Below, piece by piece: positions 4,432-54,964 of a stretch of 64,000 bases of DNA. The stretch is from a bacterium (GTDB lineage Bacteria; Omnitrophota; Gorgyraeia; Duberdicusellales; 4484-171). Made by a program: the position numbers and the translations under genes. The first letter of the stretch is position 1. Every line of letters begins with the position of its first letter. The notes beneath the pieces were generated by a model. That model did no database searches and had not been told where the DNA came from. It worked only from the letters and a program-made list of their open reading frames with translations. Location: NCBI GenBank assembly GCA_021796115.1, contig JAJYOP010000004.1:4680-68679 (forward strand), read 5' to 3'.

Positions 4432-4451
4432 GCTTGATTTCAGCTGGTATT

Positions 4452-4467
4452 ATTTTCACGTGAAAAC
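4452..4467. promoter_or_regulatory. parS-like palindrome 1
   Basis: ATTTTCACGTGAAAAC. The core TTTCACGTGAAA matches the established parS consensus tGTTNCACGTGAAACa. Confidence 0.65.
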
Positions 4468-4544
4468 GGTTAGATTGAGTACAATTAATTTTGATTGATA
4501 TTTATAGAAATTTGTAGAAATTGATAGAAATTTATTGTTTTGTA

Positions 4545-4560
4545 ATTTTCACGTGAAATT
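4545..4560. promoter_or_regulatory. parS-like palindrome 2
   Basis: ATTTTCACGTGAAATT. Confidence 0.6.
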
Positions 4561-4628
4561 TTGCTATTAATATTAAACATATACCACAAAAGTGTAGTTG
4601 TCAAGAGCTTTTTAACTGGAATCGCCTC

Positions 4629-4737
4629 ATTTTTTTATTTTTCAGGGACGAACGTCACGGATGATTGCAGATTTATACGGATAATTATAAGATTTATCCG
4701 TTTACATCCGCAACCATCCGTTTGAATCCGTGCCTGA
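4629..4737. repeat. Word-hairpin repeat, family F (CGGAT/ATCCG words), copy 1
   Basis: catttttttatttttcagggacgaacgtcacggatgattgcagatttatacggataattataagatttatccgtttacatccgc. A near-identical copy lies at 39157-39247. Confidence 0.7.
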
Positions 4738-4754
4738 AATGTTTATGAGTTTTT

Positions 4755-4770
4755 ATTTTCACGTGAAAAC
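4755..4770. promoter_or_regulatory. parS-like palindrome 3
   Basis: ATTTTCACGTGAAAAC. Confidence 0.65.
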
Positions 4771-4819
4771 TTTAAAGGGTTAAAAGGCCTGTCTTGAAAA
4801 CTCAATATTTACGCGGGTT

Positions 4820-6244
4820 TTATGAGTTTTCACGTGAAAACTGAGCGCGGGTGATCCTTAACTGATAGGCAAAGGTAAGCATGTTTTGCATAAGCCAGTA
4901 AAGAGAAAGCCCAGCAGGGAAATTATAGAAAATAATCCCCATAAATCCAATCATAAAAAACCCCATTCTTTTTTGATCCGGAGAGCTACCTGCAGGGTTA
5001 GCATATTTTTGCTGGAGAAAACCCACCAGCACAATGAGCAGTGGTAAAACATTAAGATAGTTCACTGGCGGCGGTAAGGGCAGTTTAAAGGCGTGATCCG
5101 GTATGGATAAATCTTTAATCCACAAAAAATGAGCATTCTTTAACTCAACAAATTTTAATAATACCTGATATAGTGCAATAATGACTGGGAATTGGAAGAG
5201 CAAAGGTAAACATCCGCCAATCGGGTTAACTTTGTGCTTTTTGTACAGCTCCAGCATTTCTTTATTGAGTTTTTGCGGGTCATTCTGGTATTGTTTTCTC
5301 AAAGCATCCATTTGCGGTTGGAGCTCCTGCATTCTCCGCATGGCTTTTGTGCTCTTCATGGTGAAGGGGAAGAGAATAATATAGACAATTACCGCTAAAA
5401 TAATAATACTTACGCCCCAGTTATGACTGAGGGAATGGAAGAAATAGAGGAGTTTAGCCAAGCCCACGCCAATACTATGGAAAAAACCATAATTTATCAC
5501 GCCTTCCAAGCCTACGGTTTTTAGATTAGCCTCTAAGCACGGGCCAACATATAAAGAAATTTCGGAAACCGGGGGAGGGGCGAGCAAGAAAACCTGGTCG
5601 GAAATCTTTTGCCACTCTACATTATAAGAACCTTTAATCAGCGAAAGGCAAAAATAGTTATTCCGGGTACCGGCAAAATCAACGTGATTTACTGTTTGTT
5701 CCTTAATTTTTTGCGGAACCAGGTGTTGGAAATGGTTATCTTTATAATAAAAAATTTCCTGGGCATTATATCGTTCTAATTTCTTGGGGTTCAAAGTGTT
5801 AGAAAAAATAGTTACATTTGAAGTCGGCGCAGGAAAAAATTTCATCGTCAGTATATTCTTCTTAAAAATAAACTCTTTTTGCTTGCCGGCGCCTGAAAAT
5901 ACAATCCTGTCTTGTTTAACTTCCGTTTTAAACTCTAAATCTTTATCTGCCTGGGAAAAGCCTATATTTTCAGAGAAAAGTTGCGTTTGGTAATCTTTTA
6001 GATAGATAGTTTTTATATAACCGCCTCTGTTGGAATAAGTTATGACAAAATTACCTAGAGTAGCGCTGGAAAGCTCTTCAGGGGTATTGAATGGTATTTC
6101 TTCTTTCTGGGGGGCTTTTTTTTGTTCGGCTACCGTGGGCGGGACAGTTACTGGCTGTTTTGGGGCATATTTTGAGACAAAATACATGTAACCCATTGTG
6201 AATAAAAAGGTTATGAGAAGAGTTTGTATCAATCTTTTTTCCAT
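4820..6244 (-). CDS. yidC: Membrane protein insertase YidC
   Basis: 474 aa. The C-terminal 60-kDa-IMP core is present (GCLPLLFQFPVIIALY, PAGLSLYWLMQN). Confidence 0.9.
   Translation of the reverse strand: MEKRLIQTLLITFLFTMGYMYFVSKYAPKQPVTVPPTVAEQKKAPQKEEIPFNTPEELSSATLGNFVITYSNRGGYIKTIYLKDYQTQLFSENIGFSQADKDLEFKTEVKQDRIVFSGAGKQKEFIFKKNILTMKFFPAPTSNVTIFSNTLNPKKLERYNAQEIFYYKDNHFQHLVPQKIKEQTVNHVDFAGTRNNYFCLSLIKGSYNVEWQKISDQVFLLAPPPVSEISLYVGPCLEANLKTVGLEGVINYGFFHSIGVGLAKLLYFFHSLSHNWGVSIIILAVIVYIILFPFTMKSTKAMRRMQELQPQMDALRKQYQNDPQKLNKEMLELYKKHKVNPIGGCLPLLFQFPVIIALYQVLLKFVELKNAHFLWIKDLSIPDHAFKLPLPPPVNYLNVLPLLIVLVGFLQQKYANPAGSSPDQKRMGFFMIGFMGIIFYNFPAGLSLYWLMQNMLTFAYQLRITRAQFSRENS
4826..4841. promoter_or_regulatory. 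parS-like palindrome 4, overlapping the last codons of yidC
   Basis: GTTTTCACGTGAAAAC. It encodes the FSRENS tail of the yidC ORF. Confidence 0.6.
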
Positions 6245-6284
6245 TTAGATTTTGGCCTCCGCGTTGTTTTTATTTTGAGGTTTT

Positions 6285-6491
6285 TTATTTAACCGGATCG
6301 TATCCACCTTTTGCAAAAGGATGGCACTTTAATATGCGCTTGCATGCCAAGCCAAGGGCCTTGAAAAAGGGGTATTGCGCAAATGCATCCTTAGCATAAC
6401 AGGAACAGGTAGGAACATAAATGCATTGGGAAGGGAAGAGGTGCGCAACTTTCTGGTAAAGAGAAATTAAAAAAATAGCGGCCTTATTCAT
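6285..6491 (-). CDS. yidD: Membrane protein insertion efficiency factor YidD
   Basis: 68 aa with the YidD signature CIYVPTCSCYAKDA...HPFAKGGYDPV. Confidence 0.85.
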   Translation of the reverse strand: MNKAAIFLISLYQKVAHLFPSQCIYVPTCSCYAKDAFAQYPFFKALGLACKRILKCHPFAKGGYDPVK

Positions 6492-6496
6492 ACCGT

Positions 6497-6634
6497 TTAC
6501 ACAGTTAGCCGCTTTCTTCCTTTCTGTCTTCTTCGGTGAAGAACTTTCCTGCCGCTTTTTGTGGTCATTCTAGCGTGGAATCCATGCCTTCTTTTGCCTT
6601 TTATTTTGGTCGGCGTTTTAAGATGTTTTTTCAT
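6497..6634 (-). CDS. rpmH: 50S ribosomal protein L34
   Basis: My own translation gives [45 protein letters not shown] (45 aa). It is below the ORF-track size cut-off. Confidence 0.85.
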
Positions 6635-6675
6635 AGGCAAAATTGTAACATAACCTCGGGGAGTGTCAACTACTT

Positions 6676-6703
6676 TTGACAGAAATTAGCATGGCAATAT
6701 AAA
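6676..6703 (+). promoter_or_regulatory. Sigma70-like promoter facing dnaA
   Basis: TTGACA (6676-6681), 16-nt spacer, TATAAA (6698-6703). This would give dnaA a roughly 330-nt leader containing the family B hairpin. Confidence 0.4.
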
Positions 6704-6710
6704 TGCACTG

Positions 6711-6898
6711 GGGAAATAAACAATTTCCAAGATACAATGACCAAACAATATCCAATAAGCAATCCTTCGGCTACGCTCAGGATTGTCCTGAGCGAGTGAA
6801 ACGAGTCGAAGGGCAAATTCCAATATTCAAACAAAACCAACATTTTGTTTGGTTATTGGATATTGGAACTTGGTTGTATCTTGGTTATTGGTTATTTT
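6711..6898. repeat. Word-hairpin repeat, family B (CCAAT/ATTGG arms around the ctcagg-N5-cctgag core), copy 1
   Basis: The core at 6764-6813 is ccttcggctacgctcaggattgtcctgagcgagtgaaacgagtcgaaggg. It is flanked by complementary ccaa/ttgg-rich arms. Copies lie at 20625-20930 and 27892-28243. Confidence 0.8.
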
Positions 6899-6990
6899 TA
6901 TGAAGCCACAGCGTTTACGGTTACAATAAAATTGTTGCATTGCAAATTTATTGGGGTATAATTTAACCAACTTTCTTTCCAATTAACTGT

Positions 6991-7019
6991 TGTGAATAAC
7001 TTGTGAATCTTGTGAATTA
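6991..7019. promoter_or_regulatory. Three DnaA-box-like 9-mers directly upstream of dnaA
   Basis: TGTGAATAA (6991), TGTGAATCT (7002) and TGTGAATTA (7011). These are the reverse complement of TTATTCACA-type boxes, one or two mismatches from TTATCCACA. Confidence 0.5.
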
Positions 7020-7032
7020 AGTTTTCATTCTT

Positions 7033-9708: not shown

Positions 9709-12808
<3,100 letters not shown>

Positions 12809-12810
12809 TG

Positions 12811-12940
12811 AAAAACTCTAAACTCGAAATTCTAAACTCTAAACAAACCCAAAACTCAAAATCCAAAACCCTAAACGTTTCGAATTTTCTTCTGTTTGTA
12901 GTTTATGATTTGTTACGGAAGAGTTTAGTGTTTAGAGTTT
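12811..12940. repeat. Word-hairpin repeat, family A (CTAAACTC/GAGTTTAG words), copy 1
   Basis: The left arm is aaaaactctaaactcgaaattctaaactctaaacaaaccc... The right arm is ...ggaagagtttagtgtttagagttt. It fills the gyrB-gyrA spacer. Confidence 0.8.
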
Positions 12941-12950
12941 AAAAAAACAT

Positions 12951-15900
12951 ATGCAAGAGCAAACCAACAAAGGGAAAATCATCACCCGCTATCTCGAAGA
13001 GGAGATGAAGGAGTCGTATCTTTCATATTCGATGAGCGTTATTGCCGGCCGCGCTCTGCCGGATATTCGGGACGGGTTAAAACCAGTCCAACGCAGAATC
13101 ATGTACGCGATGCACGAGCTGCATCTGCGTTATAACCAGCCGCACAAAAAAAGCGCAAGAATCGTCGGAGAATGTTTTGTAAAAAATACACTTGTTTCTA
13201 CGAAGCGAGGGCTAACCCCTATCCAGGACGTCCGCAGGGGGGATTTCGTTTTTACCCAGACCGGCTTAAAACGCGTAAGTGAACTTTATTGCATGCCACG
13301 CCGCCCACTCGTAAAGATAGCGTTGGATAATGGGCTCACTAACATCGCTACTCTTTCGCAAAAATTTAAAGTATTCGGTAGCGATTTAAAATTCGCTTTT
13401 AAAGAAGCAAAGGAATTGCAAATCGGCGATTACATTGTTTTAAAAGCTACCTATCCGAACAAGAGTAAGTATGTAAAAACCAAAGGCATCACTGTTAACG
13501 AAAATATCGGATATCTTTTGGGCTTACTTATGTCCGACGGATGGGTGGAGAAAAGCGAAAGAGGATATAACCGTTTAGGTTTTTGCGCCAAAGACTTAAA
13601 TACATTAAAAAAAATACAGGCGATAGTCAGAACAGAATTTAATTTAGAGGAGAATATATTAAAAAAACCAGAAGTTCATTATTTCAGAATAAACAAAAGC
13701 GATGTTAACACGCGATTAATAAAAACCTTTGGCTTAAAAAATCTATCCGCGGAAAATAAATTTATACCTGGCGAAATTCTTCGCTCGCCATCCACGGTTA
13801 TTTATGCTTTCTTATCCGGTTTATTTGAAGGCGACGGAAGCGTCCATAAAAATAGGCAATGCCTTGACTACTCGTCCGTTTCCACCAAGTTAATCTCTCA
13901 ATTGCAAGTACTACTTTTAAGCCTCGGGGTTGTTTCGAGCCGCTATTGCACAAAGCCTAAAATGCACAAATTAAAAGGCAGATTGATAAAAACAAATTTT
14001 CCATGCTTTGCCTTGGAGGTTTCCGGAAGCAACTTAAAAAAGCTTGCGGAAGGGCTGCGGCTGGTCTCCTCAAAAAAAGAGCGCTTAGAAACAAAAACGT
14101 ATGACCGCACGCTTCCTTCCAAATATGACGCCATCCCGTTTTTGGGGCAAGCCCTCTTTAGAGAATTTAGCGAGAAGCATTTAGGTGGAGGATGGTATAG
14201 TAAATCCGAAGGCGGAGAAAAATTTCGTTTAGGCGTGAAGTATGCGAATGGCACAAAGATAAAATACGCAAAAGATTTGTTAGACACAATAAAAGTATAT
14301 AAAACAACAATGGGCGGGTTAAATATTTTAGAAAAAGCCAGGAGAATAGGCTCGCAATATATACCGCTTTTGAAAGAAATTTTGGAAGAAAATCTTTATT
14401 TTATCCCTGTAAAAGAAATAAACAATGCCGGCTGCGATTTTACTTATGATATTGAAGTTGAGAATGACCATGAATTTATTGCTAACGGCATGGTCTCGCA
14501 CAATTGCCTTGGGAAATATCATCCGCACGGAGACCTTTCGGTTTACGATGCATTGGTGCGCATGGCGCAGGATTTTTCGCTGCGCTACCCGCTTATAAAC
14601 GGCCAAGGCAACTTTGGTTCGATAGATGGCGACCCTCCGGCAGCCATGCGTTATTCTGAAGCGCGGCTTTCGAAAATTTCCGATTTCATCCTTCAGGATA
14701 TCGACAAGGACACGGTCAAATTCTTCCCAAACTTCGATAATTCACTTACCGAACCGGAAGTTTTACCGTCGGTTGTTCCGACGCTTCTTATTAACGGCGC
14801 AAGCGGTATTGCCGTTGGCATGGCGACAAATATGCCGCCGCATAATTTAGGCGAAGCTTGCGATGCGCTCGAACATCTCATCGACAACCCGCAAGCCTCG
14901 GTAAAAGAATTGCACAAATTTATCAAAGGCCCGGATTTTCCCACCGGCGCAATTATCTGCGGCAAGGGCGACATCCTGAAAATGTACGAAGAAGGCAAAG
15001 GAAAACTTATCCTGCGCGCCAAATCAACTATCGAACACGAAAAAGGCAAATCGCAGATAATTATTACAGAAATACCTTACCAGCTGAATAAAACCAACCT
15101 TATAGAATCCATCGCTACCTTGATTACCGACAAAAAAATCGAAGGCGTTTCTGATCTTCGCGACGAGTCCGATAAATCAGGCATACGCATACTTTTAGAA
15201 CTTAAACGGGATGTTGAGCCGCAAATAATTTTGAACCAGCTCTATAAACACACAAATCTTGAAACAACTTTTGGCGCGATATTCCTGGCACTGGTTAACC
15301 ATAAGCCGGTTATTCTTACGCTTAAAGAAATGCTGGCGCACCATATCAGCTTCCGCAAGGAGGTAATTGTTAGAAGGACAAAGTTTGAGCTCGACAAAGC
15401 CCAGAAACGCGCCCATATTTTAGAGGGTTTAAAAATTGCGTTAAAACATCTCGACGAAGTCGTTGCTTTAATCAAGAAATCAAAGAATCCGCAAGAAGCC
15501 AAAGAGAACTTGATGAAAAAATTTTCTCTGACCGAAATTCAAGCCCAGGCAATTTTAGAAATGCAACTTGTCCGGCTTTGCGCGCTCGAGCGCGATAAAA
15601 TAGACCAGGAATATATGGAGCTACTCAAGAAAATAGAGCTCTACAATGCGATTTTAGCTTCCGAGCGGAAACAGGAAGAGCTGATCAAGGAAGAGCTTAA
15701 AATTTTGAAAGAACAATTTGCCGACGAACGCCGCACCGAAATCGTCGCACAAAAAGAAGAGATAGAAATCGAAGATTTGATTGTCGAAGAAGATATGGTT
15801 ATCACTATAAGCGGTTCAGGCTATATCAAACGTCAGCCGCTCTCAAGCTACCGGCAGCAGAAACGGGGAGGCAGAGGCGTTACCGCCATGGCCACATCCG

Positions 15901-16727
15901 AAGAGGATTTTGTCGAACATCTTTTTGTTGCTTCAAGCAAAGACACACTTTTAGTTTTCAGTGACGAGGGCCAGATTTATCCAATTAAAACTTATGAAGT
16001 CCCTGTCGGCAGCCGCACCTCCAAGGGCAGAGCGATAATTAATCTTTTGAGCCTGTCAACCAAAGAAAAAGTTACCAAAGTTTTATCGACAAAAGAATTC
16101 GATCCCAAGCGTTTTATTTTAATGACTACCGAACAAGGCGTTATAAAAAGATGCTCGCTGGAACTTTTTGCCAATATCCGCAAAAGCGGAATAACCGCTA
16201 TAACTTTGGAAAAAGGCGATAAGCTTGTCGGCGCAAATATCTGCGAAGACAAAGACGAAGTTATCCTGATTACCAAAAAAGGAAAATCCATACGCTTCGA
16301 AGTTAGCCAAATCCGGCCAACCGGCAGGCAATCCCAGGGCGTGCGCGGAATGAGACTGGCCAAGGGCGATGTAATTGTTGGTATGGCGCTCATCGAGGGA
16401 ACGCTGAAGAAGAACGATTTCTATATTCTAAGTGCAACCGAAAACGGTTTTGCCAAACGCAGCCATATCGAAGAATACCGCCTGCAATCAAGAGGTGGCA
16501 AGGGGATAATTAATATAAAAGTTTCTTCTAAAATCGGTGACGCCAAAGGCGCGATTCTTGTGCAGGAAGCCGACGAAGTCATGTGTATAACTCAAAAAGG
16601 CATACTTATCCGGACAAAAATAAAAGATATCCGCGCCTCCGGCCGCTCAACGCAAGGCGTTAAGATTATTAATCTGGAATCCGGGGATAAACTTTCCACC
16701 ATAGCCCGCATCATTCCTGAAGAATGA
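12951..16727 (+). CDS. gyrA: DNA gyrase subunit A, interrupted by a LAGLIDADG intein
   Basis: The extein junction is SARIVGE|C...SHN|[10 protein letters not shown]. The catalytic Tyr region [10 protein letters not shown] lies downstream of the intein. C-terminal beta-pinwheel repeats are present. Confidence 0.95.
13173..14504 (+). mobile_element. GyrA intein with a LAGLIDADG homing endonuclease domain (444 aa)
   Basis: It starts [13 protein letters not shown]. The LAGLIDADG blocks are [12 protein letters not shown] and [13 protein letters not shown]. It ends [21 protein letters not shown], followed by the +1 Cys. Confidence 0.85.
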
Positions 16728-16859: not shown

Positions 16860-16887
16860 TTGACAAAATAGATTTTGTATTTAAAAT
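16860..16887 (+). promoter_or_regulatory. Sigma70-like promoter for tRNA-Glu
   Basis: TTGACA (16860-16865), 16-nt spacer, TAAAAT (16882-16887). Confidence 0.45.
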
Positions 16888-16902
16888 AAAGCAGCTCTTT
16901 TA

Positions 16903-16984
16903 ACAGATAGCAGATAACCGATGTCAGATGTCAGATGGCAGATAAAAATATCTGCCTAACTGTTAGCTGTCATCTGCTATCTAA
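16903..16984. repeat. Word-hairpin (CAGAT/ATCTG words) between the promoter and tRNA-Glu
   Basis: acagatagcagataaccgatgtcagatgtcagatggcagata-aaaa-tatctgcctaactgttagctgtcatctgctatct. Confidence 0.65.
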
Positions 16985-16989
16985 AACCT

Positions 16990-17064
16990 GTCCCCATCGT
17001 CTAGCCTGGTTCAGGACATCGCCCTTTCACGGCGACGGCGCCAGTTCAAATCTGGCTGGGGACG
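16990..17064 (+). tRNA. tRNA-Glu (anticodon TTC); CCA not encoded
   Basis: The acceptor stem pairs GTCCCCA with TGGGGAC. The anticodon arm is cgcc-CTTTCAC-ggcg. The T-arm is gccaGTTCAAATctggc. The discriminator is G at 17064. Confidence 0.9.
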
Positions 17065-17201
17065 TTAATGAGGCAGCAATCTTTTCTGAGCCTGTCCGCT
17101 TCTTGCGGGCAGGCGATAGAAAAGTTGCGTAGCCGAATTAATCCCGCCGAAGTCAGGAGAAATTTTATTAAAAATTTCTCCTGTATATAGCGAAGGCGGG
17201 G
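17065..17201 (+). ncRNA. GA-clamp hairpin motif, copy 1 (unclassified structured element abutting tRNA-Glu)
   Basis: The clamp is TTAATGAGGC (17065-74) ... GCCGAATTAA (17132-41) and encloses a long hairpin. A second stem follows, CCCGCC (17143-48) / GGCGGG (17195-200). The first 77 nt are identical to 25980-26056. Confidence 0.5.
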
Positions 17202-17266: not shown

Positions 17267-17686
17267 ATGGATACGAAAAAAAGACCAATCGGCGTAATAA
17301 TTCTGGGCATCTGCAATTTAGCGCTTTTTGGCATCAACCCGCTCGTAACTTCTTTTATCCCTCAAAATTGGGGAACATTTAATGAAGTGCTTAAGGCAAA
17401 GCATATCGATTTAACCTTAAGCCAACCCTTAATAAAAATAATGACAATTACGCAGATAATCATCGCATGTATTTTTATTGCTTCAGGGATAGGGCTGCTA
17501 TTAAGTAAAGAATGGGGGAGGAAGATAGCAGTGTATTTTGCTTTTGCTGTTTGTTTAATTAGCCTGCTTGTAGCATTAATGGCCCCGTCTTTAACCGGAG
17601 TGGCGATTATTCAGATTATTTACCCGGCTATCCTGATTATTTATTTTACGAACAAAAACGTCGAAGCATATTTTAAGCGCAAATAG
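17267..17686 (+). CDS. Hypothetical multi-pass membrane protein
   Basis: 139 aa with four hydrophobic segments. I recognise no family. Confidence 0.55.
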   Translation: MDTKKRPIGVIILGICNLALFGINPLVTSFIPQNWGTFNEVLKAKHIDLTLSQPLIKIMTITQIIIACIFIASGIGLLLSKEWGRKIAVYFAFAVCLISLLVALMAPSLTGVAIIQIIYPAILIIYFTNKNVEAYFKRK

Positions 17687-17694
17687 AAGGAGAT

Positions 17695-17866
17695 AAACTC
17701 TAAATCCGAAACACTAAACTCTAAACAAATCACAAACTACAAACAAAAAAACTCAAAACAAGCGTTTAGATTTTGTGGTTTCGAGGTTGTTTAGGATTTC
17801 CCGCCTCTGGCGGGTCCGCCCACATATAAAAGTATCGGTGGCGGAAGAGTTTAGTGTTTAGAGTTT
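17695..17866. repeat. Family A word-hairpin, copy 2, carrying module X
   Basis: aaactctaaatccgaaacactaaactctaaacaaatcac...ggaagagtttagtgtttagagttttt. The inserted module at 17799-17845 is tcccgcctctggcgggtccgcccacatataaaagtatcggtggcgg. Confidence 0.75.
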
Positions 17867-17874
17867 TTAAAAAT

Positions 17875-20472: not shown

Positions 20473-20492
20473 AATAGCCTGCCAGATTACCC

Positions 20493-20521
20493 TTGACATT
20501 TGCTGTTATATAAGGTATATA
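20493..20521 (+). promoter_or_regulatory. Sigma70-like promoter of the pyrR leader
   Basis: TTGACA (20493-98), 17-nt spacer, TATATA (20516-21). Confidence 0.5.
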
Positions 20522-20528
20522 TTATGAA

Positions 20529-20561
20529 ACCTTTAAGCTGGTCCAGAGAGGCTGGCAAGGA
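20529..20561 (+). promoter_or_regulatory. PyrR-binding (anti-antiterminator) stem-loop
   Basis: cctttaagctgGTCCAGAGAGGCTggcaagg. It contains the established PyrR recognition sequence UCCAGAGAGG in a hairpin. Confidence 0.7.
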
Positions 20562-20592
20562 ACTAACATGAAAATAATACTAAAAATCGAGA

Positions 20593-20624
20593 CCCCGTAC
20601 CTAAACAGTACGGGGTTTGCTTTT
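20593..20624 (+). terminator. Intrinsic terminator (attenuator) of the pyrR leader
   Basis: ccccgtac-ctaaaca-gtacgggg followed by tttgctttt. Confidence 0.7.
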
Positions 20625-20930
20625 CCACAGATGTTCACAGATAAGAAATCGCAGATTATCACAGATAACTAATAAATATGGCTGGAGAAATAAACAATTT
20701 CCAAGATACAATAATCAAACAATGACCAATAACCAATCCTTCGACTACGCTCAGGATTGTCCTGAGCGAGTGAAACGAGTCGAAGGGCAAATCTCAATAA
20801 CCAAACAAAAACCAACATTTCCGTTTGGTCATTGGATATTGAATATTGTAATTTGTTTGTATCTTGTCTCTTGGTTATTGGTTATTTCTAAAGCATCTGT
20901 GCCTATCTGTGATTTACATCTGTGCTAATC
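20625..20930. repeat. Composite nested word-hairpin (family C CACAGAT arms enclosing family B), copy 2
   Basis: The outer arm ccacagatgttcacagataagaaatcgcagattatcacagataac pairs with aagcatctgtgcctatctgtgatttacatctgtgc. The inner family B element has its core at 20738-20787. It is about 90% identical to 27892-28243. Confidence 0.8.
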
Positions 20931-20947
20931 TTTGCGGAGAAAACGAC

Positions 20948-21535
20948 ATGAATAACTTTAAGGAAAAAGCAAAAATCTTAAACGACGAAGAGATAAAACG
21001 CACTCTGCAACGGTTGGCTCATCAGGTTTTAGAGAGCAATACCGAGAAGGAGGAGATTGTTTTAATTGGCATTCAGACTCGCGGCGTTTATCTGGCAAAG
21101 CGGCTGCAGGCGATTCTTAAAGAGATCGAAGGCAAAGACCTTCCTTTCGGCATACTCGACATAACTTTATACCGCGATGACTTAACGGTTGTCGGCACAA
21201 AGCCGCAGGTTAAGGAAACCCAAATAGATTTTGACCTTAACGATAAAATAGTAATTCTTATTGATGATGTTTTGTTTACCGGAAGAACAATACGCGCTGC
21301 CCTTGATGAGATCATGGATTTCGGAAGGCCAAAAACAGTGATGCTTCTAGTTTTGATTGACCGAGGGCACAGAGAGCTTCCTATCCGGGCAGATTTTGTC
21401 GGTAAAAATATACCCACATCAAAGAATGAAACGGTGTTAGTGCATCTTGCAGAACTCGATGGGCAAGATGAGGTTGTAATCGGCGAGAAGTTAAACACGA
21501 ATGACCACGAAACTGAGACGACCCATTCGACGTAG
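20948..21535 (+). CDS. pyrR: Bifunctional pyrimidine operon regulator / uracil phosphoribosyltransferase PyrR
   Basis: The start is reset to MNNFKEKAKILNDEEIKRTLQRLAHQV. The PRPP motif is VILIDDVLFTGRT. The ORF-track N-terminus ([12 protein letters not shown]...) is repeat-encoded and is shared verbatim with carB. Confidence 0.9.
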   Translation: MNNFKEKAKILNDEEIKRTLQRLAHQVLESNTEKEEIVLIGIQTRGVYLAKRLQAILKEIEGKDLPFGILDITLYRDDLTVVGTKPQVKETQIDFDLNDKIVILIDDVLFTGRTIRAALDEIMDFGRPKTVMLLVLIDRGHRELPIRADFVGKNIPTSKNETVLVHLAELDGQDEVVIGEKLNTNDHETETTHST

Positions 21536-21572
21536 CTCAGGGTCGTCCTGAGCGAGTAAAACGAGGCGAAGG
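21525..21572. repeat. Diverged solo copy of the family B core
   Basis: attcgacgtagctcagggtcgtcctgagcgagtaaaacgaggcgaagg. It overlaps the pyrR stop region. Confidence 0.55.
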
Positions 21573-21586
21573 ACGAATTTACAGGA

Positions 21587-24524: not shown

Positions 24525-25753
24525 AATTCGTAGCAGATTTTCACATTCATTCAAAGTATTCACGAGCCACTTCGCGGGATATGGATATTCCCAATCTTGC
24601 GAAATGGGCAAGGTTAAAAGGCATCAGCCTTTTGGGCACAGGCGATTTTACGCACCATCTCTGGCTGCAGGAACTTAAAAAACACTTGGGCACCGAGCCG
24701 CAGAAGGGCCTGTTTTCTTACGAAGGTATTCATTTTATCCTGACCGCAGAAATATCGAGTATTTATTCCCAGAATGGGAAAGTTTACCGCGTGCACAATG
24801 TAATCATGGCACCTTCTTTTGAAATTGTTGCTGAAATCAATAAAGCACTTTCAAAACAAGGCAATCTCGCATCAGATGGCCGGCCAATCCTTGGCATAAG
24901 CTGTATTAAGCTTGCCGAAGAACTTTCGAAAATCTCAAAAGACATTATGCTAGTTCCGGCGCACATTTGGACGCCGTGGTTTTCGGTCTTTGGTTCGAAT
25001 TCGGGTTTTAATTCTCTTGAAGAAGCCTTTGGAAAATATGTCGAAAACATAACGGCGCTGGAAACAGGTCTTTCGAGCGATCCCGGGATGAACTGGCGGC
25101 TTTCCCAGCTCGATAAATATTCTTTAATCTCGAACTCCGACAGCCATTCGCCGCAACGAATTGGCAGAGAAGCCAATGTTTTTGATTGCGAGATGGATTA
25201 TTACGAGATAAAAAAAGTCCTTGAGGCCAAAGACAATAAAAAATTTTTATACACCGTGGAGTTTTTCCCGGAAGAAGGCAAATATCATTTCGACGGCCAC
25301 CGGAATTGCGATTTAAGGCTTTCGCCGGCGGAAACTAAAAAATATAAAGGCCTTTGTCCGCGGTGTAACCGGCCAATAACCAAAGGCGTTTTAAATCGAG
25401 TCGAAGAGCTAGCCGACAGGCCGGAAGGCTATGTTCCGGAAAATAATATCGGCTATAAAAGCTTGGTTTCCTTTGACGAGATTATTGCCGATGCCAAAGG
25501 TGTCGATAAAAAAAGCAAAGCCGTATTAAGGGAATACATGGAAATAATCCCGGCCTTCGGTTCAGAATTTAATATTTTAGTCAATGCGACAGAAAAAGAA
25601 CTTTTTTCAAAGCTTCCGGAAAAAATTGCCGAAGGCGTTAAGCGCGTACGCGAAGGAAAATTGCAAATAGAACCGGGCTACGACGGCGAATACGGGGTGA
25701 TTAAAATTTTTGGGCTGGATGAGAAGAAGAACGAACAGATGACATTATTCTAA
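24521..25753 (+). CDS. Endonuclease Q-like PHP-domain protein (TIGR00375-type)
   Basis: DFHIHSKYSRATSRDM, GTGDFTH, EGKYHFDGHRNC, and the Zn finger CPRCNRPITKGVLNRVEELA. The 4-nt ATGA overlap with the Mut7-C gene suggests translational coupling. Confidence 0.65.
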   Translation: MKFVADFHIHSKYSRATSRDMDIPNLAKWARLKGISLLGTGDFTHHLWLQELKKHLGTEPQKGLFSYEGIHFILTAEISSIYSQNGKVYRVHNVIMAPSFEIVAEINKALSKQGNLASDGRPILGISCIKLAEELSKISKDIMLVPAHIWTPWFSVFGSNSGFNSLEEAFGKYVENITALETGLSSDPGMNWRLSQLDKYSLISNSDSHSPQRIGREANVFDCEMDYYEIKKVLEAKDNKKFLYTVEFFPEEGKYHFDGHRNCDLRLSPAETKKYKGLCPRCNRPITKGVLNRVEELADRPEGYVPENNIGYKSLVSFDEIIADAKGVDKKSKAVLREYMEIIPAFGSEFNILVNATEKELFSKLPEKIAEGVKRVREGKLQIEPGYDGEYGVIKIFGLDEKKNEQMTLF

Positions 25754-25767
25754 ATACATGTGTAATT

Positions 25768-25900
25768 TAAACTCTAAACTCGAAACCCTAAACTCTAAAC
25801 AAACTCGAAACTCTAAGTTCCAAACCCTAAACGTTTCGTGTTTTCTTCCGTTTGTAGTTTGTGATTTGTTTAGAGTTTCGAGTTTAGGATTTAGAGTTTA
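25768..25900. repeat. Family A word-hairpin, copy 4, ending 7 nt before tRNA-Arg
   Basis: taaactctaaactcgaaaccctaaactctaaacaaactcg...gtttagagtttcgagtttaggatttagagttt. Confidence 0.8.
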
Positions 25901-25907
25901 AAAAAAT

Positions 25908-25979
25908 GTCCCTGTAGCCCAACGGATAGGGCGTTGGCCTCCGGAGCCAAAAATGGCAGTTCGATTCTGCCCAGGGACG
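25908..25979 (+). tRNA. tRNA-Arg (anticodon CCG); CCA not encoded
   Basis: The acceptor stem pairs GTCCCTG with CAGGGAC. The anticodon arm is ttggc-CTCCGGA-gccaa. The T-arm is ggcaGTTCGATTctgcc. The discriminator is G at 25979. Confidence 0.9.
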
Positions 25980-26190
25980 TTAATGAGGCAGCAATCTTTT
26001 CTGAGCCTGTCCGCTTCTTGCGGGCAGGCGATAGAAAAGTTGCGTAGCCGAATTAACCCCGGCGAGCGTCAAAAAATTATGGAACAGAATTTTTTGACAT
26101 CCCCTGCGAGCCGGGGTAATGAGCACGAGTGCAGAAGCAAAACGTGTAGAAATTTCTAAAGAAATTTTTGCTGTATACAGCGAAGGTAGG
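25980..26190 (+). ncRNA. GA-clamp hairpin motif, copy 2, with an extra degenerate module; abuts tRNA-Arg
   Basis: The clamp is TTAATGAGGC (25980-89) ... GCCGAATTAA (26047-56). The second stem is CCCCGGC (26057-63) / GCCGGGG (26110-16). After that comes TAATGAGCACGAGTG...gctgtatacAGCGAAGGtagg. Confidence 0.5.
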
Positions 26191-27891: not shown

Positions 27892-28243
27892 CCACAGATG
27901 TTCACAGATAAGAAATCGCAGATTATCACAGATAACTAATAAATATAACTGGAGAAATAACCAAGATACAAGAAACAATAATCCCAGAAGGGATAGGCCT
28001 TCCTATATACCTTTATAAGGAAGGGCCTAATCAAACAATGACCAATAACCAATCCTTCGACTACGCTCAGGATTGTCCTGAGCGAGTGAAACGAGTCGAA
28101 GGGCAAATCTCAATAACCAAACAAAAACCAACATCTTTGCTTGGTTATTGTTTCTTGGATATTATAATTTGTTTGTATCTTGTCTCTTGGTTATTGGTTA
28201 TTTCTAAAGCATCTGTGCCTATCTGTGATTTACATCTGTGCTA
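27892..28243. repeat. Composite nested word-hairpin (families C and B), copy 3, filling the carA-carB spacer
   Basis: It has the same outer and inner arms and the same core (28054-28103) as 20625-20930. It also carries an extra 49-nt insertion. Confidence 0.8.
27984..28032. mobile_element. 49-nt mini-hairpin insertion with a TAATC target-site duplication, nested in composite repeat copy 3
   Basis: Copy 2 reads caaTAATCaaacaatg. Copy 3 reads caaTAATC-ccagaagggataggccttcctatatacctttataaggaagggccTAATC-aaacaatg. The inserted sequence is itself an inverted repeat (aggccttcc/ggaagggcct). Confidence 0.6.
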
Positions 28244-28263
28244 ATCTTTGCGGAGAAAACGAC

Positions 28264-31200
28264 ATGCCGAAAAGAACAGACCTCGAAAAAATTTTAATCA
28301 TCGGCTCAGGCCCAATTATTATCAGCCAGGCCTGCGAGTTTGATTATTCCGGTGCGCAAGCTTGCAAAGCGCTTAAAGAAGAAGGCTATAAAGTTGTCCT
28401 CTTAAATTCAAACCCGGCAACGATTATGACCGATCCCGAACTTGCCGATGCCACTTACATTGAGCCGATAACGGTTGAGGTGCTTGAGAAAATTATCGCC
28501 AAAGAAAAACCCCAAGCCTGCCTGCCCACGCTTGGCGGCCAGACCGCGCTTAACGTTGCATATGATGCCGCAAAAAAAGGCATTTTCAAAAAATACGGCG
28601 TGGAGCTTATTGGCGCAAATGAACAGGCAATCGCCAAAGCCGAAGACAGAGAACTTTTCAAAGGCACGATGGCCAAAGCCGGCATCAGCCTTCCGCGTTC
28701 GCGCACGATTTATTCTAGTGACGAGGGCCAGGCTGCACTTGATTTTGTCAACCTCCCCTGCGTCATCCGGCCGGCATTTACCCTTGGCGGAACCGGCGGA
28801 GGAATCGCTTATAACATCGAAGAGTATTGGGAAATTTTAAAACGCGGGCTTGACCTTAGCCTTATCCACGAAGTTTTAATCGAGGAATATCTCCAGGGCT
28901 GGAAAGAATACGAGCTTGAGGTGATGCGCGATAAAAAAGACAACGTGGTAATTATCTGTTCCATAGAAAATTTCGACCCTATGGGAGTGCATACCGGAGA
29001 TTCGATTACGGTTGCGCCAGTTCAGACGCTGACCGATGTAGAATATCAGAAGATGCGTATGGAAGCCATAAAAGCAATCCGGGCAATCGGAGTTGAGACC
29101 GGTGGAAGCAATATTCAATTTGCGGTTAACCCCAAAGACGGCAGAATGGTAATCATTGAAATGAATCCGCGGGTTTCCCGTTCGTCAGCGCTGGCCTCCA
29201 AGGCCACCGGATTTCCGATTGCAAAAATTGCCGCAAAGCTTGCCGTTGGTTTCACGCTTGACGAAGTTCCTAATGATATCACCAAAGAAACCCCGGCTTC
29301 TTTCGAGCCAACTATAGATTACTGCGTGGTGAAATTACCGCGTTTTACCTTTGAGAAATTCCCGCAAGCTGACCCGACATTGACTACATCGATGAAATCA
29401 GTCGGCGAAATTATGTCTATCGGAAGAACTTTTAAAGAGGCGCTGCTTAAAGGTATCCGGGCGCTTGAGATAGGTAAAACCGGCCTCAACTCTCTTATCG
29501 CAAACGAAGAAGGGATTTCTGAAGAAGAGCTTAAAGAAAAAGTAAAACAGTATCTCACCAGACCCAACGATAAAAGGCTTTTTTACATCGCCGATGCCTT
29601 CAGGCTCGGGTTTAGTATCGACGAAATTCATGAGCTAAGCTTCATCGACAAATGGTTCCTAAGCAACATAAAAGAAATCATTGATTTCGAAGAAGAGATA
29701 AAAAAGAAAAAAATAAACAAAGAAATTCTTTTAAAAGCAAAAGAATTCGGCTTCTCCGATAAATATCTGGCAGCAATGTTTGATATGAATGAGGAGGAGA
29801 TAAGAGAGTTAAGAGAGAAAGATAAAATTGAGGCCGCCTATAAATTGGTCGACACCTGCGCCGCAGAATTTGAGGCCTACACACCTTATTACTATTCAAC
29901 TTATGATAAAGAATGTGAAGCGCGCATTACCAGTAAAAAGAAAGTTATGATTTTGGGCGGCGGGCCGAACCGGATTGGCCAAGGCATTGAGTTTGATTAT
30001 TGCTGTGTGCATGCCGCGTTTTCCCTAAAAGAAGAAAACATCGAAGTTATCATGGTCAACTGTAATCCCGAAACAGTGTCTACAGATTATGATACTTCGG
30101 ATAAATTATATTTTGAACCAATAACCCTCGAAGACGTGTTAAGTATCTACAAAAAAGAAAAGCCTTACGGAGTGGTATTACAATTCGGCGGTCAGACCCC
30201 GCTTAACCTTGCTCTTGGCCTTGAAAAAGAAGGGATAAATGTCTTGGGCACAAAAGCAAAATACATTGATATCGCCGAAGACAGGGATAAATTCAGGACC
30301 CTTCTGCACAAATGTTCGCTAAGGCAGGCAGAAAGCGGTATCGCGCACAATTTGGAAGAGGCAAAAGAAATCGTTGCGCGGCTGGGGTATCCGGTCATGG
30401 TCAGGCCATCCTATGTTTTAGGCGGCCGCGCCATGGAAATTATCTATGATTCGCAAACCCTGGAAAGCTTTTTGAAAGAAGCGCTTCTCTATTCGTTGAA
30501 TCAAACCATTCTTATCGATAAATTTCTCGAAGACGCGATTGAAGTCGATGTTGATGTCATCGGCGACGGTGAAGTTTTTGTTATCGGAGGAATCCTGGAG
30601 CATATTGAAGAAGCTGGCATCCATTCCGGCGACAGCGCCATGTGCCTGCCGGCATTCAGCCTTTCCAAAGAAATTTTAGAAAAAATAAGAGACGCAAGCT
30701 ATGGCTTGGCAAAAGAATTACACATTGTCGGGTTGATGAATATACAATTTGCGGTAAAAGACGGCGAACCTTACATCCTTGAAGTAAACCCAAGGGCCTC
30801 AAGGACAATCCCTTTTATCTCAAAAGCTATCGGCGTTCCTTTGGCCAAGCTTGCCGCAAAAGTAATGATGGGGAAAAAATTAAAAGAGCTTAACTTTATC
30901 AAAGAAATACTTCCCCCGTATAAATGCGTAAAAGAATCAGTATTTCCTTTTAACCGGTTTTTCGGTGTCGACACAATGCTTGGCCCTGAAATGCGTTCAA
31001 CCGGAGAGGTTATGGGGATAGATAAGGATTTTGGCAGCGCCTATTTAAAAAGCCAGATTGCGGCTTACCAATTTTTGCCAAAACAAGGCAATGTTTTTAT
31101 TTCGGTTAAGGACAAGGATAAACCGAAAATCGCATCAATTGCCAAAAAGCTTAAGGAATTTGGTTTTAATATTCTTGCGACAGAAGGAACAGGAAAGGTG

Positions 31201-35559: not shown

Positions 35560-35577
35560 AATAAAAGAATTTCCTTA

Positions 35578-35681
35578 CCCCACACCCGGCCCACATAAAG
35601 AAAGTTTAATGAAACTGGGTGTGGGTATAATTCGACTAAGTACTTTTTAGACTTCCTGTCTAAAAAGTACAAGTCTCATTA
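35578..35681 (-). ncRNA. GA-clamp hairpin motif, copy 5 (opposite strand to the flanking genes)
   Basis: The minus strand reads TAATGAGAC-tt-gtactttttagac-aggaa-gtctaaaaagtac-tta-GTCGAATTA-ta-CCCACACCC...GGGTGTGGG. Confidence 0.45.
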
Positions 35682-35834
35682 TCGCACTATGATTTTTCCG
35701 GCGCCATGCCTGCCCTTCGGGCAGTCTAGGCTTGGAAAAATCACGTGCTCATTAATTTAACTTGCCCAGCCAGGCAAATAACAGTACAATCAGTATACCG
35801 CTTTTGCCAAAATATAGGGCATGATAGTTTTAGA

Positions 35835-44504: not shown

Positions 44505-44576
44505 GGGCGGTTGGCGCAGCGGAAGCGCATCTCGTTTACACCGAGGGGGTCGTGGGTTCAAATCCTACACCGCCCA
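44505..44576 (+). tRNA. tRNA-Val (anticodon TAC); CCA not encoded
   Basis: The acceptor stem pairs GGGCGGT with ACCGCCC. The anticodon loop is TTTACAC. The T-arm is gtgggTTCAAATcctac. The discriminator is A at 44576. Confidence 0.9.
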
Positions 44577-45107: not shown

Positions 45108-46814
45108 ATGGAACTAAACACACTAAGACATTCTTGTTCGCACATTATGGCCGAAGCCGTAAAAAAGCTCTATCCGAATGCCAAATTAGGAATTGGGCCG
45201 GCGATTGAAAACGGCTTTTACTATGACTTTGAAATTCCAGGCGGCATCAAGGAAGAAGATTTGGCCAAAATCGAAGAGCTGATGAACGAAGCGGTTAAGA
45301 AGAATGTTCCTTTTGTGCACGAGGATTGGAAGTCAAAAGACGCGATAGATTTTTTTATCAAGAAGGGAGAAAATTTCAAGGTCGAACTCATCAGAGATTT
45401 AAACCAAGACACGGTTTCCATTTATAAAAACGGAGACTTCACCGACCTTTGCAAGGGTCCGCACGTTAATTCAACCGGCGAGGTAAAATATTTTAAAATT
45501 CTTTCTACTTCAGGCGCCTATTGGAAAGGCATTGATACCAACCAGCAGCTGGTGCGCATTTACGGAACCGTTTTTTTAACCAAAAAAGAATTAGACGATT
45601 ATCTTAAGCTTTTAGAAGAAGCAAAAGTAAGGGATCATCGCCATCTCGGCCGTGAATTAAAGTTTTTCGATATCTACCACAATGAAGCCGGAGCGGGGCT
45701 GGTTTTTTACCAGCCGGACGGCGCAACTCTAAGGCGAATAATTGAAGACTGGGAAATCAAAGAACACAAGGTACGCGGTTACAAAATGGTTATCACCCCG
45801 CATATTATGGATAAAAAATTGTGGCAGAAATCCGGCCACCTTGATTTTTACCAGGAACATATGTATCCGATAATAAAAGACAACCAGGAGTTCATTTTGA
45901 AACCGATGAACTGCCCGGGACATATTTTGATTTATAAATCAGCCTTGCGCAGCTGGAGAGATTTGCCACTACGTATTTTTGAATTGGGCACGGTTTACCG
46001 TTATGAAAAGAGCGGAGTCCTTCACGGTCTTCTTCGTGTCCGAGGCTTTACTCAGGATGATGCGCACATATTTTGTCGCAAGGAAGACGTAGCTCAGGAG
46101 ATAAAAGGCGTGCTTGATTTTGTCAGCGACACCATGTATAAATTCGGTTTTAATGATTTCACTGCTGAACTTTCCACGCGGCCGAAAGACTTTATCGGCG
46201 AAAAAGAAATCTGGGACGTTTCGGAGAAAATCCTTTTGGATGTGCTTAAAGAGAAGAAAATCAATTACAAAATAAACGAAGGCGACGGAGCTTTTTACGG
46301 CCCGAAAATCGATATCAAACTTAAAGATGCTCTCGGGCGAGAGTGGCAATGCGCAACTATTCAGCTTGATTTCAATATGCCGGAAAGATTCGATGTAACT
46401 TACCGCGCCGAAGACGGGAAAGATACTCGTGCGGTGATGATTCATCGCGTGGTTTTTGGGAGCCTTGAGAGATTTATCGCGACTTTAATCGAACACTATG
46501 CCGGAAAATTCCCGCTCTGGCTTTCACCGGTGCAGGTTGCCATAATCAACATTACCGAAGATGTTAAGGATTATGCTTTAGAGATAAAAGACGCCTTGGA
46601 AAAAGAAAATTTCCGCGTAGAGAGCGATTTACGTAACGAAACGCTCCAGAGAAAAATCAGAGAAAAAGAATTGCAGAAAATTCCTTACATGGCCATTGTT
46701 GGGAAAAAAGAAAAAGAAGCCGGAAAAATTTCCGTAAGAGCCAGGGGAATGAAAAATTTAGGGAGTATGGATATTAAAGAATTTTCAGCTCTTTTAAGAA
46801 AGGAGTTAGGTTAA
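45108..46814 (+). CDS. thrS: Threonine-tRNA ligase lacking the N-terminal TGS domain
   Basis: It begins at the editing-domain motif LRHSCSHIMAEAV. The class II core and anticodon-binding domain are present. 568 aa. Confidence 0.95.
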   Translation: MELNTLRHSCSHIMAEAVKKLYPNAKLGIGPAIENGFYYDFEIPGGIKEEDLAKIEELMNEAVKKNVPFVHEDWKSKDAIDFFIKKGENFKVELIRDLNQDTVSIYKNGDFTDLCKGPHVNSTGEVKYFKILSTSGAYWKGIDTNQQLVRIYGTVFLTKKELDDYLKLLEEAKVRDHRHLGRELKFFDIYHNEAGAGLVFYQPDGATLRRIIEDWEIKEHKVRGYKMVITPHIMDKKLWQKSGHLDFYQEHMYPIIKDNQEFILKPMNCPGHILIYKSALRSWRDLPLRIFELGTVYRYEKSGVLHGLLRVRGFTQDDAHIFCRKEDVAQEIKGVLDFVSDTMYKFGFNDFTAELSTRPKDFIGEKEIWDVSEKILLDVLKEKKINYKINEGDGAFYGPKIDIKLKDALGREWQCATIQLDFNMPERFDVTYRAEDGKDTRAVMIHRVVFGSLERFIATLIEHYAGKFPLWLSPVQVAIINITEDVKDYALEIKDALEKENFRVESDLRNETLQRKIREKELQKIPYMAIVGKKEKEAGKISVRARGMKNLGSMDIKEFSALLRKELG

Positions 46815-46822
46815 TATTACGT

Positions 46823-47034
46823 TAAACTCTAAACTCTAAATGGTTCGGCTCGCCTAAAGACTCGCTTACTATTCTCAAGCGAACTATAGTAGAGCCAAAG
46901 GACAAATCCAAAATTACAAACTCCAAAAACTTGTTTTCAAGTTTGTAATTTGTTATTTGTGATTTGTTTAGGATTTCCCACCAGAAGCGGGTCCGCCAAA
47001 ATATAAAAATCATCGGTGGCGAAAGAATTTAGTG
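46823..47034. repeat. Family A word-hairpin, copy 7, with nested inserts including module X
   Basis: taaactctaaactctaaa...[ggctcgcctaaagactcgcttactattctcaagcgaactatagtagagcc]...gatttcccaccagaagcgggtccgccaaaatataaaaatcatcggtggcg...agaatttagtgtttagagttt. Confidence 0.75.
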
Positions 47035-47067
47035 TTTAGAGTTTGAGAAAAAAGGAGGTAAAAGCGA

Positions 47068-54866: not shown

Positions 54867-54885
54867 TTTACTATTTAAATTTCAC

Positions 54886-54962
54886 TAATGAGGCCTAACA
54901 TTTCTCCAGGCCTCTATTGGCGCAGGAAAAATGTTAGGCCGAATTACCCTTGAGCGAAGGGG
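54886..54962 (+). ncRNA. GA-clamp hairpin motif, copy 3 (5' leader of the acyl-CoA ligase gene)
   Basis: TAATGAGGC-ctaacattt...aaatgttag-GCCGAATTA-CCCTT-gagcg-AAGGG. It ends 2 nt before the ATG at 54965. Confidence 0.5.
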
Positions 54963-54964
54963 TA

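Follow-up and report, generated by a model that had tools for sequence, protein, structure and literature searches.

A 77-nt sequence that directly follows two unrelated transfer RNA (tRNA) genes in a 64,000-nt stretch of an Omnitrophota genome (contig JAJYOP010000004.1; the whole stretch is referred to here as the window) is, in our judgment, probably the first hairpin of a mosaic repeat dispersed in one Omnitrophota clade, and not a dedicated tRNA-linked RNA gene. The repeat resembles repetitive extragenic palindromic (REP) units, the bacterial interspersed mosaic elements (BIME) and the miniature inverted-repeat transposable elements (MITE). We refer to the composite two-hairpin element as E and to its parts as hairpin 1 (hp1) and hairpin 2 (hp2). 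E is multi-copy, present or absent at orthologous loci, modular, and unbiased in its orientation to genes. As parts of this explanation taken as a whole, it is likely that E is dispersed through one clade of Candidatus Omnitrophota (the window and the relatives' loci L002-L008), and that the two tRNA-adjoining copies are independent insertions at a preferred landing position, the first base after the discriminator. Both copies lie beside tRNA genes called by Rfam and ARAGORN, the ends given by ARAGORN being one base off:

16990..17064, plus strand: tRNA-Glu(TTC), no encoded CCA, discriminator G at 17064, landing site of copy 1 (Rfam RF00005, 58.9 bits; ARAGORN)
17065..17141, plus strand: copy 1 hp1, subtype A, UUAAU-GA-GGC...GCC-GA-AUUAA with a nested apical GC hairpin (covariance-model match of 49 bits, E-value 2.8e-6)
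17142..17201, plus strand: copy 1 hp2, subtype i, UCCCGCC-GAAGUCA...UAUAGCGAAGGCGGGG (predicted fold)
25908..25979, plus strand: tRNA-Arg(CCG), no encoded CCA, discriminator G at 25979, landing site of copy 2 (Rfam, 67.3 bits)
25980..26056, plus strand: copy 2 hp1, subtype A, same sequence as copy 1 hp1
26057..26116, plus strand: copy 2 hp2, subtype ii, CCCCGGC-GA-GC...AAAAAAUUAUGGAACAGAAUUUUUU...GC-GA-GCCGGGG (predicted fold)
26117..26190, plus strand: degenerate older copy, a subtype-B hp1 5' remnant (UAAUGAGCACG...) fused to a subtype-i hp2 3' part (...UGUAUACAGCGAAGGUAGG), weak fold

The initial annotation, a reading of the bare sequence, had the two CCA-less tRNAs ending at 17064 and 25979 and an identical 77-nt sequence starting at the base after each discriminator. 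The Rfam calls confirm the former, and alignment of 17065-17141 with 25980-26056 confirms the latter (77/77 identical). The window contains exactly two occurrences of a 30-mer from the shared 77 nt (0.00 expected), and a third copy of the exact 77-nt hairpin was not found by BLAST. Because both tRNAs end in GGGACG, the identity reaches 6 nt back into them. Such complete identity indicates recent copying or gene conversion. The two loci were also said to diverge after the 77-mer while keeping equivalent stems, and this holds: hp2 is exactly 60 nt long at both, with different sequences and compensatory outer stems (CCCGCC/GGCGGG in copy 1 vs CCCGGC/GCCGGG in copy 2), and the fold z-scores of the two loci are -9.0 and -8.7. 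The second degenerate module reported after copy 2 exists as well, at 26117-26190, and was assigned to E by sequence comparison with the copy at 35755-35682, L008 and L004. Since this decayed copy sits in the tRNA-Arg trailer, the 77-mer copy there would be a newer insertion, again exactly at the tRNA end. The tRNA-Val gene (44505-44576) was correctly described as lacking the element.

Both tRNA-adjoining copies are probably co-transcribed with their tRNA. A strong promoter-like site (TTGACA-16-TAAAAT, 16860-16887) lies upstream of tRNA-Glu, and co-transcription is likely because no promoter- or terminator-like site was seen between copy 1 and the next open reading frame (ORF). The maturation of CCA-less tRNAs involves cleavage by RNase Z after the discriminator. 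Cleavage at this position would leave a downstream RNA beginning with a stable 5' hairpin, and the release of such an RNA is a plausible local consequence for copies 1 and 2, as predicted from the arrangement. Two small ORFs that overlap the element (16935-17132 and 25953-26159) were rejected as coding: both begin within the tRNA, and from copy to copy the loop changes in length without keeping the frame.

A motif search, along with an hp1-derived covariance model, was applied to the window and to the loci of relatives. The window holds four copies of E (17065, 25980, 54885 and, on the minus strand, 35755), two of which are not at a tRNA and one of which is antisense to its neighbouring genes. 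The two copies away from tRNAs are as follows:

54885..54962, plus strand: copy 3, no tRNA adjoining, hp1 at 54885-54947 and a mini hp2, CCCUUGAGCGAAGGGG, at 54947-54962 (covariance model, 42.8 bits)
35576..35755, minus strand: copy 4, subtype-B hp1 at 35755-35682, a second hp1 at 35681-35628 and hp2 at 35627-35576 (covariance model, 34.5 bits)

Copy 3 forms the 5' untranslated region (UTR) of an AMP-binding enzyme gene, with the 3' arm of its mini hp2 (GAAGGGG) lying 3 nt before the AUG at 54965. This arm is the probable Shine-Dalgarno sequence of the gene, which the mini hp2 pairs (54947-54967 region), and the predicted hairpin could therefore mask the ribosome-binding site. Copy 4 sits between two plus-strand genes, pabB-like and pyrK-like, in an intergenic region with a fold z-score of -12. 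A TAATGAGCACGTG string had been placed on the minus strand at 35751-35763; it is present there, although roughly 10 nt away, at 35754-35742.

To follow the family beyond the window and its relatives, metagenome contigs were scanned with the pattern TAATGAGGC-N30-60-GCCGAATTAAYCC, which matched at least 120 contigs. Every match inspected by eye consisted of a hairpin followed by hp2. The family statistics given below rest on 120 unique copies among the matches listed, and metagenome contigs carry L numbers (e.g., L055, L096), as do the relatives' loci (L002-L017). Across these copies E is short (~100-140 nt) and non-coding, with hp1 (55-77 nt) of the form UUAAU-GA-stem...stem-GA-AUUAA and hp2 (15-100 nt) a G+C-clamped stem, CCC...GGG. 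The base of hp1 contains a symmetric tandem G.A/A.G loop within the helix, and comparison of interrupted with intact tRNAs sets the boundaries of the unit at TTAATGAGG...CGGG(A/G). The hp1 stems are held by compensatory change: 94.3% of their cells are paired, and double changes occupy 121 cells against 31 +/- 6 in shuffled and 18-30 in slid controls. There is no excess of G.U pairs (10) over A.C pairs (7). Tandem G.A pairs, which are strand-specific, are found again in hp2 (CCC-GA...GA-GGG); at the apices, C-GAA-G and C-AAA-G are the commonest loops.

The hairpins are exchanged as modules. One and the same hp1 is joined to two hp2 subtypes, i and ii, and each of these recurs with other hp1 sequences (subtype i in L003, L004 and L109; subtype ii in L082, L149 and L145), from which it follows that E is a mosaic of hairpin modules. 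The apices of hp1 or hp2 in L127, L123, L060 and L082 carry nested small G+C-rich perfect palindromes, e.g., CCTGCCTGCCGGCAGGCAGG, and the 30-nt apical hairpin of the window 77-mer is another nested apical palindrome. On this evidence, new hairpins seem to accumulate at hairpin tips.

Comparison of orthologous tRNA loci in relatives, which the initial annotation had suggested, revealed tRNA-Arg and tRNA-Glu loci without E. The relatives of the window belong to Candidatus Omnitrophota, and the window is identical to a contig of the metagenome-assembled genome (MAG) GCA_027371495.1 across the 6,450-nt locus compared. These relatives share the order tRNA-Arg, SLOG gene, carA. E follows tRNA-Arg in the window, L004 and L008, with the same base motifs and differing stem sequences; other palindromes occupy the same position in L002, L003 and L005-L007, and in L010, L015 and L017 the site is empty, with only ~30 nt from tRNA-Arg to the start codon. 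The tRNA-Glu of L172 and L174 is the same base for base when compared by eye, and is followed by wholly different trailers without E. Further copies occur in the Omnitrophota MAG loci L004, L005, L006 and L008; in L005 and L006 the PyrR attenuator has E directly behind its terminator T-run, and the hp1 of L006 has the same hairpin base as the window 77-mer. The covariance model detected no E in the more distant loci L009-L017. As orthologous tRNA loci vary and the distant loci are without E, we conclude that it is a lineage-restricted insertion and not a part of the tRNA genes.

The position of E relative to genes is informative in the metagenome matches. Only 3 of the 120 copies lie inside ORFs, and orientation relative to co-directional flanking genes is approximately even (21 same/same, 30 opposite/opposite). 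This even orientation, together with G.U pairs not exceeding A.C pairs, speaks against E being a gene for an RNA of one given strand. Position -1 is a T in 112/118 copies and positions -2 to -6 are pyrimidine-rich, with no fixed motif. The 5' end of E is always joined precisely to a boundary, be it a tRNA end, a tRNA loop, a stop codon, the edge of a Shine-Dalgarno sequence or the T-run of a terminator; the 5' junction is exact, whereas the 3' junction is loose. Thus the element's own TAA (followed by TGA) serves as the stop codon of the upstream gene in 18 copies, and there are no copies at 0-28 nt beyond a stop codon. In 23 copies E is flush with a Shine-Dalgarno sequence read in reverse complement (CCTCCT|TAATGAGG), the start codon being 10-16 nt off, and in at least 15 it is flush with a terminator hairpin and its T-run. 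The gene for ribosome recycling factor (frr) provides an example of the stop-codon class: in L096 (303-376) and L110, from two species, the TAA of E is its native stop, and the L096 protein is matched to the last position of the Pfam profile, its native C-terminus. The hp1 stems of the two species differ by compensatory changes, and this frr-E-tRNA-Lys copy has therefore been long retained in place.

tRNA genes are strongly over-represented among these boundaries. A tRNA lies within 400 nt of 20/126 copies, the matches listed included, and direct contact with a tRNA or a tRNA fragment is made by ~12-15% of the copies listed. As a rough estimate of our own, ~5% of intergenic space flanks tRNAs and exact junctions would make up well under 1%, so the contact frequency is far above a uniform intergenic model by this approximate measure. 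E starts in sense at the base after the discriminator of three unrelated tRNAs (tRNA-Glu and tRNA-Arg of the window, and tRNA-Thr in L085), or 3 of ~120 copies. The affinity of E for tRNA genes is genuine yet non-exclusive, with tRNA sites making up ~15% of copies. The earlier suggestion of a mobile insertion that targets tRNA 3' ends is accordingly right in part, in that E is an insertion with presence/absence variation and is over-represented at tRNAs; it is too narrow in that tRNA sites are a minority. At approximately ten further loci among the matches listed, E lies inside a partial tRNA copy that adjoins an intact tRNA:

T-loop, between positions 56 and 57, antisense to the tRNA: L061, L081, L084, L088, L090, L094, L147
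D-loop, sense: L135, L151/153, L152, L156
Anticodon loop: L055, where hp2-like modules also occur alone

Every tRNA-loop case has the arrangement u-A-[E]-B'(4-25 nt)-x-A-B-rest, in which the interrupted tRNA fragment is 5' of E, the intact tRNA is 3', and the two share an identical A of up to 60 nt. In L084 and L094 the arrangement occurs in successive rounds. In L055 (2400-3100), L084 and L094 we also observed mosaics of tRNA fragments interleaved with hairpin modules. In these, one tRNA 3' part is repeated in up to three partial copies in tandem; a different module breaks each copy, at one and the same T-loop or anticodon-loop position, and the series ends in one intact tRNA. Flank duplication was found in 9/107 copies, all at tRNA sites, and was consequently rejected as a general property of E. 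None of the target-site duplication (TSD) model, the integrase att model or simple slippage could be fitted to the duplication pattern. Either only insertions that spare an intact tRNA survive, or the duplication belongs to the mechanism itself.

How E might be copied can be outlined conditionally. An enzyme encoded elsewhere, recognising folded single-stranded nucleic acid, would copy the element; the strand-specific tandem G.A pairs and C-GAA-G loops suggest that top-strand DNA hairpins would be recognised, as with HUH/Y1-type enzymes. This enzyme appears to prefer loops or single-stranded tails beside short stems, and selection in a compact genome may then retain only those copies that leave neighbouring signals intact. 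GAA-type loops are unusually stable in DNA, and the C-GAA-G loops of E thus hint, if weakly, at single-stranded DNA as the form that folds. A more specific version is possible, if rather unlikely: E would be a non-autonomous bacterial element of a new kind that recognises structure and not sequence. It would target hairpin loops and single-stranded tails, and the folded gene or transcript of a tRNA would suit it best. Its movement would proceed via a single-stranded DNA or RNA intermediate, with insertion into an essential tRNA linked in mechanism to the polar local duplication u-A-[E]-B'-x-A-B that regenerates the intact tRNA, and E would be a prokaryotic counterpart of tRNA-gene-targeted elements.

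Among known systems, the REP/BIME (REPIN) sequences of Enterobacteria and Pseudomonas have much in common with E. They are short imperfect palindromes of high copy number, intergenic and often intercistronic just after stop codons, found in both orientations, assembled as mosaics of different hairpin units, and lineage-specific; E likewise is a dispersed extragenic palindrome of high copy number, as its frequency in the 64-kb window, the number of matching contigs and its rarity in ORFs attest. The mobilising enzyme of REP/BIME is encoded elsewhere in the genome, as we infer for E. E differs in its longer hairpins, in the direct order of two different hairpins in place of inverted REP doublets, in its conserved tandem G.A pairs and tRNA-loop insertion, and in that no RAYT, the Y1 transposase of REP systems, was found among the window ORFs scanned or near E copies. 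The IS200/IS605-derived palindrome-associated transposable elements (PATEs), moved by Y1 HUH transposases, share with E unlike ends that each have their own imperfect hairpin, the absence of terminal inverted repeats and target-site duplications, and strand-specific features that fit recognition of folded single-strand DNA. Unlike with PATEs, a fixed tetra- or pentanucleotide was not apparent on the 5' side of E, where a T comes after a run rich in pyrimidines; neither TnpA nor TnpB was found, and no replication-strand bias could be shown. The Correia/NEMIS elements of Neisseria and the Rickettsia palindromic elements (RPEs) are, like E, small non-autonomous palindromic repeats that enter transcripts, carry or alter expression signals, and can sit within genes, RNA genes included. 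E, however, shares neither the terminal inverted repeats and TA duplication of Correia elements nor the in-frame insertion of RPEs into ORFs. Group IIC introns (at intrinsic terminators) and the TRE retroelements of Dictyostelium and yeast Ty3 (at tRNA genes) are analogous in target choice alone, that is, beside stem-loops and a T-run or at tRNA genes as safe havens in compact genomes, whereas E, at ~100-140 nt, has no ribozyme core, ORF or reverse transcriptase.

Several other identities were considered and rejected. The UGAUGAG...CGAA-like strings recall the hammerhead ribozyme, but UUAAUGAG has an A where the CUGANGA core of that ribozyme has G5, and a continuous helix in place of a three-way junction, and there was no Rfam ribozyme match at E <= 10. 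A kink-turn, which has a 3-nt bulge directly 5' of its tandem G.A/A.G pairs, does not fit, since in E these pairs make up a symmetric 2x2 loop with Watson-Crick pairing on either side and the 2-3-nt bulge is 4 bp away. TTAA-specific insertion of hp1 with TTAA duplication (piggyBac- or IS5-like) is attractive in that hp1 is flanked by TTAA...TTAA and coincides with TAA stops; against it, whole units occur in tRNA loops without TTAA or duplication, and the copies at 54885 and in L004 lack the outer T/A pair. An IS91-like GTTC/CTTG target was dismissed as GAAC follows E in 7/114 copies and GAAC or CAAG lies near the junction in 12, mostly T-loop cases. Retroposition was examined through its 5'-truncation signature, and only a few truncated copies were seen among the matches listed. 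A viral origin was rejected: 11 viral-contig matches to the core pattern without its last four bases were non-hairpin chance hits, coding by eye. Plasmid sequences contained no match to E, and an exact 27-mer of the element was absent from species-representative genomes. In Rfam 15 the window yielded only tRNA matches, both at the gathering threshold and at E <= 10, and L004-L008 only tRNA and PyrR matches; literature searches by topic and by sequence string, together with Rfam, returned no description of the family. E is thus apparently an undescribed family of a kind, dispersed palindromic repeats, that is already known.

Two rival explanations start from the tRNAs. The initial annotation favoured a dicistron of tRNA and passenger RNA, in which E would be a functional small RNA co-transcribed with CCA-less tRNAs and released by RNase Z with a defined 5' end. 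In its favour are the start at the base after the discriminator of three unrelated tRNAs, the strong promoter-like site upstream of tRNA-Glu and the lack of another between E and the next ORF, the very stable predicted fold, and motifs of RNA-like appearance (tandem G.A pairs, loops of GNRA type). This identity of E is nonetheless very unlikely, considering that ~85% of the copies listed lie away from tRNAs, that orientation to transcription is ~50/50, that orthologous tRNA-Arg and tRNA-Glu loci of relatives and the window tRNA-Val do without E, that the T-loop copies are antisense to the tRNA, and that no Rfam family matches. E could also be the scar or site of integrase att-type recombination at tRNA genes, with the partial tRNAs as remnants of attL/attR and E as an arm left over from a small integrative element. 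tRNA-targeting integrases use the anticodon loop, the T-loop and the 3' end. The sublocations of E match these, and partial tRNA 3' or 5' parts of 25-60 nt do lie beside an intact tRNA. But E lies within the duplicated segment and not between the two copies, no integrase gene was found nearby in the window ORFs scanned or among E-flanking proteins, most copies lack any tRNA context or flank duplication, and window copies 1 and 2 have no duplicated tRNA segment, all of which makes this origin extremely unlikely.

A further explanation takes E as a selected cis-acting intercistronic RNA cassette, with a UAA-UGA double stop, hairpins acting as stabiliser, processing site or insulator, and a GAGGGA-type Shine-Dalgarno sequence masked in the 3' arm of hp2 that would gate or couple translation, its spread being secondary. 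Points for it are the in-frame stop that E supplies to 18 genes with none offset by 0-28 nt, start codons 5-13 nt after hp2 (e.g., GCGAGGGAUAAAAUG in L101 and GAAGGGGUAAUG at 54955-54967), and the compensatory changes with which orthologous copies have been kept in different species. Against it, half of the copies are reversed, so that G.A becomes U.C/C.U and the stop and Shine-Dalgarno logic is not equally applicable; copies in dead tRNA fragments and after terminators have no such role evident, and orthologous genes do without E. We therefore regard the cassette as distinctly unlikely to be what E primarily is, although it may coexist with mobility. The retention of copies at one locus across species with compensatory changes (frr-E-tRNA-Lys in L096 and L110; tRNA-Arg in the window, L004 and L008) also weighs against the mosaic-repeat explanation itself, since the long retention of E copies in small genomes hints at a function. 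Other points weigh in the same direction. A mobilising enzyme was looked for and not found. Around E copies there is no recurring protein family, and no transposase, integrase or reverse transcriptase was seen; the window protein scan, which took in ~39 of ~50 ORFs, met only housekeeping genes and no transposase. The whole unit has no terminal inverted repeats and no target-site duplication, which places E outside the classical MITE definition. Each end is a different hairpin, TTAA...TTAA is part of the hp1 stem, and a filled tRNA site compared with an intact one (GGAATC|E|GAACC vs GGAATCGAACC) has no duplicated bases. Most copies lack the REP GTAG/CGTC tag, with GTAG only in the subtype A 3' arm (GCGTAGCC), the dominant subfamily being GTTGTATGGCC. 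The G.A/A.G motif could equally be the site of an RNA-binding protein, and among the metagenome contigs only L059 is tied to a relative, by its match to L006.

The wider window provides the setting for these copies. Gene orientation switches at 4432-7032, a likely replication origin region: yidC and parAB are minus-strand genes, dnaA, dnaN, gyrB and gyrA plus-strand genes. Of the four E copies lying to the right of this region, three are on the plus strand. Both gyrB and gyrA (9986-12808 and 12951-16727) contain an intein, that of gyrA with a LAGLIDADG domain. The window also holds a pyrimidine-biosynthesis cluster. A PyrR-binding attenuator can be recognised by eye at 20480-20625 (promoter, CCTTTAAGCTGGTCCAGAGAGGCTGGCAAGG and terminator), matching RF00515 in L005 and L008; in the window it was not called by Rfam at the gathering threshold, and is followed by ~330 nt of nested palindromes before pyrR. 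A second repeat family with the core TTCGACTACGCTCAGGATTGTCCTGAGCGAGTGAAACGAGTCGAAGGGCAAAT occurs at 6708-6836, 20682-20950, 27998-28266 and 21526-21579, its sites lying in oriC between yidC and dnaA, in the leader of pyrR beyond the attenuator, and upstream of carB (families D1, D2, D5). Moreover, long imperfect hairpins with arms of tandem 6-9-nt words, e.g., CAGATAAC and AAACTCTAAACTCGAAA, make up many longer intergenic regions and leaders, as at 16900-16985, 25746-25900, 12790-12947, 17672-17873 and 46813-47051 (fold z-scores -4 to -12). The tRNA-Glu leaders of L172 and L174 and the tRNA-Arg trailers of L005-L007 are word-built hairpins too. Where such hairpins are orthologous the architecture is kept and the words differ (GCATAGCG, GTAACACGT, GTTACGAA, AACCAA).

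Overall, what appeared locally to be a tRNA-linked RNA gene gives way to a family-level view of an abundant mosaic hairpin repeat in a clade of the uncultivated phylum Omnitrophota. E shapes the boundaries of transcription units, i.e., stop codons, Shine-Dalgarno and terminator edges, tRNA trailers and 5' UTRs, and for this reason should be masked or modelled in genome annotation and in the mining of non-coding RNAs. Its precise 5' junctions and repeated insertion into tRNA loops beside a regenerated tRNA point to a structure-directed insertion mechanism that the standard models of terminal inverted repeats with target-site duplication, REP/RAYT or integrases do not explain.

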